From the NCBI GenBank assembly GCA_014380615.1, contig JACMJM010000046.1:1-47726 (forward strand): DNA of 47,726 nucleotides, written 5' to 3'. The DNA is from Sphingobacteriaceae bacterium. GTDB lineage: Bacteria > Bacteroidota > Bacteroidia > Sphingobacteriales > Sphingobacteriaceae. Below, piece after piece: positions 23,490-24,311 of the stretch. A model generated the notes under the pieces. It had not been told where the DNA came from. It saw only the letters and a list, made by a program, of their open reading frames with translations, and made no database searches. Position 1 is the first letter of the stretch, and each line of letters starts with the position of its first letter. The translations under genes were made by a program, and so were the position numbers.

Positions 23490-24311
23490 ATGAACTTAAC
23501 TCAATATAAACGTTTTAACACAAGTTTGCTGCTCTGCCTTTTGCTGTACACCACGGCCTACGGGCAGCGCCTGAACGTAAACCCGACTATTCTTAGCTTT
23601 AATTTAAGCGATGCCGGTGCGGTTTCCACACAAACTATAACGGTTACTAATTTATCGGACAAAAAACAGACCTATCAACTCTCCTTAGGCGACTGGATTC
23701 GCGACAGCATTGGCGCACATCGCTATTATGCGCCAGGGGCCATGAGCCGCTCTTGCGCCCGTTGGATAACCTTCGATAACCCAACGGTTGAAATTGAATC
23801 ACAGCAATCGCGTGATGTGCGGGTAACCCTGCAAGCACCTGCTGACCAGAACGCCCTGAAAGAGATGAAATGGGCCATGATATTTATCCAAAACGTGCTT
23901 GAGCAAACCGGCAATGAGGGTGCTGCCCCAAAAATGAAAGCTACTATACGCGAAGTGTTTAGAATCGGGCTGCATGTTTACCAAACTCCAGTCACGGTAA
24001 CCGAAAAGTCTGCTAAAGCGATAGCTGTAACACAAAGCAAGTCTGAGCCCAACGTGTATAATTTTTCGATGGTAAATACCGGAAAAGTGATGCTTGAATG
24101 TAAGATTAAATCTGTGTTGACAAATCTTGTGAGCGGAGATGAAATTAAACTGGAAGAGTACGAGATCCCTGTATTTCCCGGTGCCGATCGAATTTTAAAG
24201 CTGGCCATACCTCCTACTGTACCCAAAGGGAAATATTCTATGTTAACGGTATTGGATTACGATGCTGACAAGCCACTGGAAGCTGTTGAAACGAATATTG
24301 TTGTTCAATAG
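23490..24311 (+). CDS. Periplasmic two-domain Ig-like protein with PapD-like (pilus chaperone) N-domain motifs; candidate chaperone
   Basis: A signal peptide is present. RLNVNPTILSF (Arg at the first strand, compare tRviyp in FimC/PapD). TITVTNLSDKKQTYQLSLGDW (compare lAVtNnddnstYLiQsW). ITFDNPTVEIESQQSRDVRVTL (compare ivTPPlf.l.pg..q.lRil). EMKWAMIFIQNV (compare E.lfW.nvkaiP). The 273-aa length fits a two-domain chaperone. Confidence 0.4.
   Translation: MNLTQYKRFNTSLLLCLLLYTTAYGQRLNVNPTILSFNLSDAGAVSTQTITVTNLSDKKQTYQLSLGDWIRDSIGAHRYYAPGAMSRSCARWITFDNPTVEIESQQSRDVRVTLQAPADQNALKEMKWAMIFIQNVLEQTGNEGAAPKMKATIREVFRIGLHVYQTPVTVTEKSAKAIAVTQSKSEPNVYNFSMVNTGKVMLECKIKSVLTNLVSGDEIKLEEYEIPVFPGADRILKLAIPPTVPKGKYSMLTVLDYDADKPLEAVETNIVVQ

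Follow-up and report, generated by a model that had tools for sequence, protein, structure and literature searches.

The subject of this study is a six-gene locus (17985–24311) in a 47,726-nucleotide stretch of DNA from a Sphingobacteriaceae bacterium (contig JACMJM010000046.1; the whole stretch is referred to below as the window), and above all its gene C, whose product resembles the periplasmic chaperones of pilus systems. The initial annotation had placed a 273-residue open reading frame (ORF) at 23490–24311, transcribed divergently from pilin-like genes. Both statements hold: the ORF is present exactly as claimed, four small secreted-protein genes (P-a to P-d) are read in the opposite direction, and this divergent arrangement recurs in other loci. 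The last gene of the locus encodes a large outer-membrane component, U. The parts of the locus are as follows.

23490–24311, forward strand: gene C, chaperone-like, 273 aa; ATG at 23490, stop codon included at 24311. Signal peptide, residues 1–25; mature start, Gln26; immunoglobulin (Ig)-like domain 1, about 27–165; hinge, Q165-T166-P167; Ig-like domain 2, about 168–273. Within domain 1, a long, low-confidence F1–G1-like loop (137–157) and a conserved amphipathic last strand (149–164; R158-x-G160-x-H162-x-Y164).
23299–23489, between the divergent genes: intergenic region of the subunit operon and C, 191 bp; putative divergent promoters, by position only.
22801–23298, reverse strand: P-a, subunit, 165 aa, GTG start; opens the divergent subunit operon; of a subtype that contains Cys and whose N-terminal strand block is shortened.
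22294–22797, reverse strand: P-b, subunit, 167 aa; signal peptide, full N-terminal donor-like strand, conserved C-terminal strand ...ILFTISNL.
21814–22140, reverse strand: P-c, short subunit variant, 108 aa; N-terminal strand RIQVRIAPFSFINL, C-terminal strand LIYTTTLN; middle of the fold missing.
21042–21536, reverse strand: P-d, subunit, 164 aa; N-terminal donor-like strand SNIAVKINAITEL, C-terminus ...VVYTLSVQ.
17985–20735, reverse strand: U, outer-membrane component, 916 aa; signal peptide (...RA↓Q31).

All products of the locus carry signal peptides, with a predicted signal peptidase I cut before a conserved Gln (A↓Q type). For P-c, where the window reads GVC↓Q, a lipoprotein anchor was considered and found unsupported, other short variants having A↓Q sites. 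A scan of the locus for sigma-70 promoters and terminators gave nothing above shuffled expectation, and the sigma-70 consensus is not meaningful for Bacteroidota.

Export, fold and relatives of C

A protein identical to C is deposited at NCBI for a Sphingobacteriaceae metagenome-assembled genome (MAG; 47.7-kb contig), where it is named only 'Fn3-like domain-containing protein'. A search of a collection of 5.8 billion proteins returned 93 homologues at E ≤ 0.001, nearly all of 260–290 aa, and the family as a whole comprises 6,505 representatives at 50% identity with E ≤ 1e-3 (1,950 with E ≤ 1e-10). Forty-four homologues make up alignment A1, and a wider set contains 217 family members. The signal peptide of C ends in ...AYG↓Q26, with Gln26 invariant in A1. 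Because this signal peptide is present, and neither the sequence nor the model contains a lipobox, a transmembrane helix or other membrane anchor, or a tail for the type IX secretion system (T9SS), the data support a soluble periplasmic protein, the location that had been proposed from the sequence at the outset.

Scans of the window protein and 44 relatives against Pfam and NCBIfam revealed no model dedicated to this family. In C itself, the sole match above threshold is fn3_5 (32.5 bits versus a cut-off of 27.6 bits; residues 39–122, part of domain 1), while sub-threshold matches include Ig families of the PapD clan (Cep192_D6, PapD-like PF14874, MSP) and WxLIP_PGBD. Three homologues bear the label 'P pilus assembly chaperone PapD' from the Joint Genome Institute (JGI) pipeline. 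A single-sequence search of the PDB with the 273-aa protein gave chance antibody matches only. Conserved features include the basic residues R158, R234 and K248 and a DW-RD-G-H-Y insertion in domain 1. An interdomain disulfide between Cys89 and Cys204 was also considered, and rejected: each Cys is ∼95% conserved in the close family, yet the two are lost independently in the wider family (C/G in 25 members, L/C in 20, and other combinations).

AlphaFold2, run with A1, predicts C with a mean predicted local distance difference test score (pLDDT) of 93 and a predicted template-modelling score (pTM) of 0.81. The model consists of two β-sandwich, Ig-like domains in an L-shaped or boomerang arrangement, so that the two lobes expected of a chaperone are indeed found, and its sole weak region is 137–157. 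The best Foldseek match is 9i25_C, described as 'WxLIP bound to long WxL' (E 8e-12; template-modelling (TM) score 0.52/0.55), followed by CfaA, CsuC, EcpB, SafB, DraB, Caf1M, FimC, CupB2 and PapD with target-normalized TM scores of 0.48–0.59. The alignments to these structures (CsuC, CupB2, YadV, FimC, EcpB, SafB and PapD among them) cover 145–186 residues, mostly across both domains. TM scores are only 0.1–0.35 for other Ig proteins (Vpr, CEP192, RbmA, C5a peptidase, transglutaminase), and 0.1–0.3 for the Fn3 regions of subtilases and C5a peptidase. For this reason, the predicted two-lobed arrangement, beyond a mere Ig fold, is taken to be common specifically to C, donor-strand chaperones and WxLIP.

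The model also contains a candidate for the element with which such a chaperone would act. Across the 217 family members, positions 149, 151, 153, 157, 159, 161 and 163 are 65–100% hydrophobic, and R158, G160, H162 and Y164, which lie between them, are highly conserved. The loop ahead of this strand (149–164) is hydrophilic, variable in length (13–22 residues), and of low pLDDT. Judged by sequence, this pattern is that of the F1–G1 loop and G1 strand in chaperone–usher chaperones, and strand 149–164 would then serve in donor-strand complementation.

The protein had been described as carrying the signature motifs of PapD-like chaperones. Neither PapD_N (PF00345) nor PapD_C (PF02753) matches C even at E ≤ 1, and 0 of the 44 family members match at E ≤ 0.01. 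As a profile–profile check, A1 was compared by hhalign with an alignment of eight E. coli K-12 proteins (FimC, YadV, SfmC, YehC, YraI, YfcS, EcpB and EcpE). The full-length comparison gives a probability of 45%. This value was rejected as evidence of PapD homology; it is an artefact of aligned signal peptides, because trimming both signal peptides lowers it to 3.3% (P 0.013). The alignment of the mature sequences is collinear and not significant, and single domains of C score <1% against the chaperones. The register originally drawn by eye against FimC is therefore only partly upheld: four of the five blocks are reproduced by hhalign (...VTN...W, the VEIE...VRVTL strand, MKWAM, and FRIGLHVY paired with RIKLFY), although significance is lost once the signal peptides are trimmed.

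In chaperones of this kind, an Arg/Lys pair that anchors the subunit carboxylate is regarded as a hallmark of donor-strand function. In the hhalign register, FimC R8 falls on Ile34, whose family column reads T/I/R/K, and FimC K112 falls on the nearly invariant His162. The choice of R27 in RLNVNPT as the invariant Arg was thus wrong (its column is R/N/G/D in the family), whereas the suspicion that the Lys of the RIKL motif is replaced was correct. Because there is no match to PapD_N or PapD_C, the trimmed hhalign comparison is not significant and the Arg/Lys pair is absent, the PapD signature is not confirmed, and membership of the PapD family by sequence is not supported.

These results bear on the reading in which C is a canonical PapD family member working in a classical, alternative or archaic chaperone–usher operon. 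Such a protein would account for the fold, for the reproduced register and for the name given to three homologues by JGI. The missing domain matches, the trimmed profile comparison and the residues at the R8 and K112 positions argue strongly against it, as do the subunits and outer-membrane partner described below. We consider it very improbable, and the reading is largely refuted. By sequence, C appears to be an analogue, at most a very distant relative, of PapD, and closer to the Gram-positive WxLIP.

WxLIP_PGBD (PF06030, DUF916), the N-terminal domain of WxLIP, is the Pfam family that C relatives match most often (34 of 44 at E ≤ 0.01, the lowest E being 1.5e-7). For the window protein the score is 17 bits, under the 27.3-bit cut-off. 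The C family profile matches EfmWxLIP1 at E 4e-4, with the signal peptide not involved. This appears to be genuine, if remote, homology that falls short of the family threshold. On the surface of Gram-positive bacteria, WxLIP, made up of two Ig-like domains and a membrane helix, binds and stabilizes WxL, and it has been proposed to do so by β-strand insertion (PMC10599100). WxLIP proteins (DUF916/PF06030, DUF3324/PF11797 and a transmembrane helix; PDB 9I1Y, 9I25) are C's nearest relatives by both sequence and fold, and they too are encoded beside secreted proteins thought to be bound via β-strand insertion. C could, by analogy, be a stable partner of this type, one that binds subunits by strand insertion and, rather than being recycled, stays with them to connect or anchor the fibre base, for example to peptidoglycan or the barrel. 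The EfmWxLIP1 and PF06030 matches and the top structural match all point this way. However, C ends with domain 2, without the C-terminal transmembrane helix of WxLIP and with no sequence match to DUF3324, no WxL-domain proteins are adjacent to it, and the cell envelope is Gram-negative. We regard a stable partner as unlikely, and two further points against it arise from the subunits.

Subunits, outer-membrane partner and gene neighbourhood

Conservation of the neighbourhood was assessed in 84 loci: 80 from a one-genome-per-species scan, three further loci, and the window. The 80 scanned loci come nearly all from Bacteroidota (Sphingobacteriaceae, Chitinophagaceae and Cytophagaceae-type lineages). 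C adjoins two to seven P paralogues in 80 of the 84, usually in divergent orientation; among the other four, three are contig ends and one is a true orphan C. The pilus-assembly context proposed for C is thus supported by its neighbouring pilin-like genes. A few loci (L028, L043, L051 and L067) are from MAGs labelled Williamsia (Actinomycetota), Methylophilus and Azovibrio (Proteobacteria), and Candidatus Dadabacteria. They hold a Bacteroidota-type cluster and are most likely mis-binned contigs. Lacihabitans and related Cytophagales have an expanded version of the locus (L032, L036 and L038–L040; about 1600–7900 in each), with four tandem ∼164-aa P genes and U on one strand and one or two more P genes beside C on the opposite strand.

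A homologue search with P-d found only P-d itself, and P relatives were therefore gathered from the neighbours of C homologues. Started from any of the four small ORFs, iterated profile searches arrive at a single superfamily, with ∼250 proteins across 80 loci. Neither the 75 neighbouring small proteins nor A3, a profile of 75 diverse P proteins, matches any Pfam family, including those of WxL, fimbrillin, Fimbrial, SCPU and CblD type. Compared with the PDB, A3 matches chains of the TLP-1a/b fibrils (9IKK, E 5.4e-8; 9IKJ, E 1.1e-7). The donor strand and first half are covered, and the C-terminal match is weak. Two 'S-layer' chains (7qlh_A and 8q1o_A) also match weakly, at E 0.02–0.03 over ∼65 residues, which may reflect chance or a remote relationship.

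The TLP-1a/b fibrils were found in Tsinghua Lotus Pond water by electron cryomicroscopy (CryoSeek) and assemble by donor-strand exchange, the N-terminal strand of protomer n+4 completing the Ig-like fold of protomer n (PMC11494351). The authors identified no organism and no matching metagenomic sequence, and assembly genes were not discussed (PMC11494351). The P family carries the same N-terminal strand, and the C-terminal strand is likewise shared between TLP-1 and the P proteins of the window. On this evidence we assign the four window P proteins to the TLP-1 family, that is, to incomplete Ig folds predicted to polymerize by strand exchange. The two groups also differ, in that TLP-1 protomers have ∼236 aa with large loop insertions, whereas the window subunits are ∼85–140 aa when mature; the window locus represents a distant paralogous clade and not the source of TLP-1.

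The C-terminus of P keeps to one register: in 221 of 254 proteins exactly two residues follow [YF]-T-x-[ST], and a Tyr stands at position −12 in 221 of 254. This would fit reading of the C-terminus by a partner, as in chaperone–usher pilins. P proteins are single-domain, 85–140 aa when mature, with cleavage sites of the signal peptidase I type (A↓Q; Gln in at least 90%). P genes that adjoin C fill on average 8 of 13 columns of the N-terminal donor block, compared to 12.2 of 13 for other P genes. Subfamily P1, which includes the P-a type, is always next to C and forms a distinct Cys-containing subtype in Sphingobacteriaceae. P-a is accordingly a candidate for a tip or cap subunit. Precursors of a short P class (100–116 aa) retain both terminal strands, the C-terminal one reading ...[IV]Y[TV]T[ST]xx, and have lost the middle of the fold. 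Besides P-c in the window (21814–22140, reverse strand), examples occur in L006 (440–760), L009 (6280–6630), L025 (6524–6853), L028 (6476–6784), L033 (4214–4531) and L035 (6541–6852). Such proteins may be adaptors, terminators or strand-only caps.

The AlphaFold2 model of U has a pLDDT of 78 and a low pTM, so that domain packing is unreliable. It contains two N-terminal Ig-like domains (38–140 and 146–247), a barrel of ∼26 strands (261–715) with no plug-sized insert, and C-terminal β-sandwich domains (724–823 and 838–906). Homology of U to ushers (PF00577) was tried and rejected, given an hhalign probability of 0.4% and no Pfam usher match. A large barrel flanked at both ends by periplasmic β-sandwich domains is nevertheless also the plan of ushers (FimD, PapC), from which U differs in having ∼26 rather than 24 strands, no plug domain, and two N-terminal Ig domains in place of the usher N-terminal domain. 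U is a candidate for the secretion and assembly pore. With a partner barrel unrelated to ushers and subunits that are TLP-1-like rather than Fim/Pap/Csu-like, a canonical chaperone–usher system is not supported. The first N-terminal Ig-like domain of U (∼58–118) resembles domain 1 of C (∼49–127; hhalign probability 76%, P 2e-5, 59 columns) and lacks the DW-RD-G-H-Y insertion. This may point to a common origin, or simply to membership of both domains in the CARDB/NPCBM_assoc-type Ig class.

U adjoins C and P in 39 of 60 informative loci. In ∼20 loci, an ORF of ∼948 aa follows the subunit genes and was considered as a divergent usher; it proved to be an M16 zinc peptidase with an HxxEH motif. 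This peptidase gene lies directly after two subunit genes (∼4000–6900 per locus) in a clade without U comprising Flavipsychrobacter and related Chitinophagales (L042, L048–L050, L053–L055, L057–L059, L064, L065, L074, L075, L077, L082 and L083), and L001 (1978–4723) has two genes for M16 peptidases at a distance of ∼1 kb from the barrel gene. The proximity could be a matter of lineage synteny, or it could be functional, for instance through the processing of subunits.

The genes that flank the locus in the window are unrelated to it and not conserved: glycoside hydrolases (GH28, GH2, GH5, GH26, GH94), an extracytoplasmic function (ECF) sigma factor and a 2,886-aa GH94 protein. Together with the above-threshold fn3_5 match, the glycoside hydrolases would suit a view of C as a generic periplasmic Ig/Fn3-like accessory, carbohydrate-binding or protease-associated, that is tied to these enzymes and not to fibres. 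Yet it is the P genes and not the glycoside hydrolases that are kept in other loci, the C–P(–U) synteny is conserved, the fn3_5 match spans part of domain 1 only, and the Fn3 regions of subtilases and C5a peptidase give low TM scores. Of the readings weighed here, this is the one we find hardest to credit.

Two of the flanking regions may be described briefly. The 2,886-aa ORF (28630–37290, reverse strand), unrelated to the pilus locus, combines the GH94 supersandwich and catalytic domains with one that is glucoamylase-like, an architecture typical of cyclic β-1,2-glucan synthase-type proteins. At 26295–27404 (reverse strand), the ECF-type sigma factor (159 aa; Sigma70_r2 and r4_2) is followed by a 208-aa membrane protein without Pfam match, possibly its anti-sigma factor. 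This pair lies 2 kb from the pilus locus, an adjacency not seen in loci inspected unsystematically (e.g. L001, L002, L045).

Homologous loci reached from TLP-1

The link between C and TLP-1 was also reached from the opposite end. The TLP-1 fragment matches a 262-aa protein of a metagenomic locus (L002) at E 4e-23, with 45% identity over 101 comparable residues; this identity is approximate because the PDB sequence of TLP-1 was built from density. In L002, the 262-aa gene comes directly after a gene for a full-length C homologue, P0093 (25% identity to window C, E 3e-25), and is followed by a second P gene and then by a homologue of U with 965 aa (E 2e-37). NCBI proteins from Bacteroidia and Bacteroidota MAGs share a 90%-identity cluster with the 262-aa protein.

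A metagenome scan with the 262-aa pilin yielded 75 loci from lakes and oceans. Wherever at least 1.1 kb was available upstream of the TLP-1-like pilin (47 loci), C is the gene directly upstream of it, and all 40 loci that extend at least 4.2 kb downstream have U on that side. The gene order is that of a co-directional operon, C–P(∼260 aa)–P(∼205 aa)–U. The association of C, a TLP-1-type pilin and the barrel holds in two distant clades and was reached from two starting points.

A proposed assembly pathway and its alternatives

Collectively, these data lead us to propose that C is the donor-strand chaperone of a six-gene Bacteroidota pilus locus, a reading that draws on predicted structures and to which we assign a probability of roughly 0.7. 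The four small paralogues would be TLP-1-type pilins, Ig-like domains minus the last strand, and in the fibre another subunit would insert its N-terminal strand into the groove left open in each (donor-strand exchange). C, a two-lobed boomerang like PapD and WxLIP, would bind each newly exported subunit in the periplasm. Its strand 149–164, behind the flexible loop, would fill the groove temporarily (donor-strand complementation), and the subunit's C-terminus, invariant in length, is probably recognized by C as well. C would then hand the subunit to the barrel U, where the N-terminal strand of the next subunit would replace the strand of C and the fibre would be extruded. Strand exchange at U would drive both polymerization and secretion, and P-a, with its shortened N-terminal block, would be the tip. 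The predicted fold, the export signals, the broad gene linkage and the homology of the subunits to donor-strand-exchange fibrils are directly supported; the chaperone mechanism is what we infer from them.

Several points weigh against this proposal. The chaperone role is read from fold and synteny, and other donor-strand fibres, TasA and the archaeal cannulae, need no chaperone. C was not found to belong to PapD_N/PapD_C by sequence, its mature sequence has no significant profile similarity to the E. coli chaperones, and the R8/K112 carboxylate-anchoring pair is absent from it. R158 and H162 are moreover both lost in P0093, the homologue linked to TLP-1. As for synteny, 21 loci, mostly Flavipsychrobacter-like, have no U within 3.5 kb or more. 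In addition, the orphan C (L045, 7896–8738) sits between efp and accB/accC on a complete Flavisolibacter chromosome, where neither subunit nor barrel genes occur within 8 kb of it.

The gene counts and the fibril structure bear, in turn, on whether C could instead remain in the finished structure as a stable, WxLIP-like adaptor. A single C gene accompanies two to seven subunit genes, and the TLP-1 fibrils are homopolymeric, with no second protein in the map. C's partners are furthermore TLP-1-like pilins rather than WxL proteins, and its setting is a Gram-negative periplasm with an outer-membrane barrel.

A recycled donor-strand chaperone invites comparison with the PapD-like proteins (FimC, PapD and Caf1M; the alternative CfaA and EcpB; the archaic CsuC; COG3121). 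Like them, C is Sec-exported, soluble, periplasmic and ∼25 kDa, its domain 1 ends in an amphipathic strand that comes after a long flexible loop, and its gene accompanies those of donor-strand-exchange pilins and of a large outer-membrane barrel. Unlike them, it has no significant sequence or profile similarity and no R8/K112 anchor, is ∼40 residues longer with the domain 1 insertion, is usually divergent from the subunit genes, is paired with a barrel that is no usher, and is confined to Bacteroidota in the sampled loci. The logic of the system is that of chaperone–usher pili; what sets it apart is the combination of a chaperone that is at best remotely related and lacks the anchor, a non-homologous pore, and pilins of the recently discovered TLP-1 type.

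Bacteroidota are known for type V pili and for T9SS-dependent surface structures; they are not known for donor-strand pili built with a chaperone. Type V (FimA/Mfa) pili also rely on strand exchange between Ig-like pilins, with large two-domain lipoprotein precursors that are activated by proteolysis and need no chaperone. The P proteins, by contrast, are small, single-domain proteins with signal peptidase I A↓Q sites, lie beside a chaperone-like gene, and have no Pfam fimbrillin match. In a literature search of incomplete coverage, no paper turned up that describes TLP-1 assembly genes or a Bacteroidota pilus system in which a chaperone assists donor-strand assembly. C probably marks a chaperone-assisted pilus pathway that has not been described. 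We see an even chance that the wider formulation is also correct, namely that C, P and U are the biogenesis machinery of TLP-1 fibrils and constitute a third, phylum-wide pilus pathway of Bacteroidota, with a chaperone that works without R8/K112 and a ∼26-strand pore that arose independently of ushers, and that the C family, with at least 6,500 clusters at 50% identity, is the missing link from the WxLIP/WxL surface complexes of Gram-positive bacteria to the chaperones of Gram-negative chaperone–usher systems.

These findings give the TLP-1a/b fibrils a genetic address and a phylum, the Bacteroidota. Who makes TLP-1, and how, becomes testable in culturable carriers such as Pedobacter, Niastella and Lacihabitans. 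Because the Arg/Lys pair is absent and the pore is no usher, the system can show which features of chaperone–usher assembly are essential and which are accidental. The sequence link between C and WxLIP suggests that strand complementation of a related kind may be at work in the WxL clusters of Gram-positive bacteria. Thousands of proteins now called 'Fn3-like domain-containing' or 'hypothetical' could be re-annotated, and a widespread module of chaperone, pore and pilin would add a new assembly pathway to the Bacteroidota.

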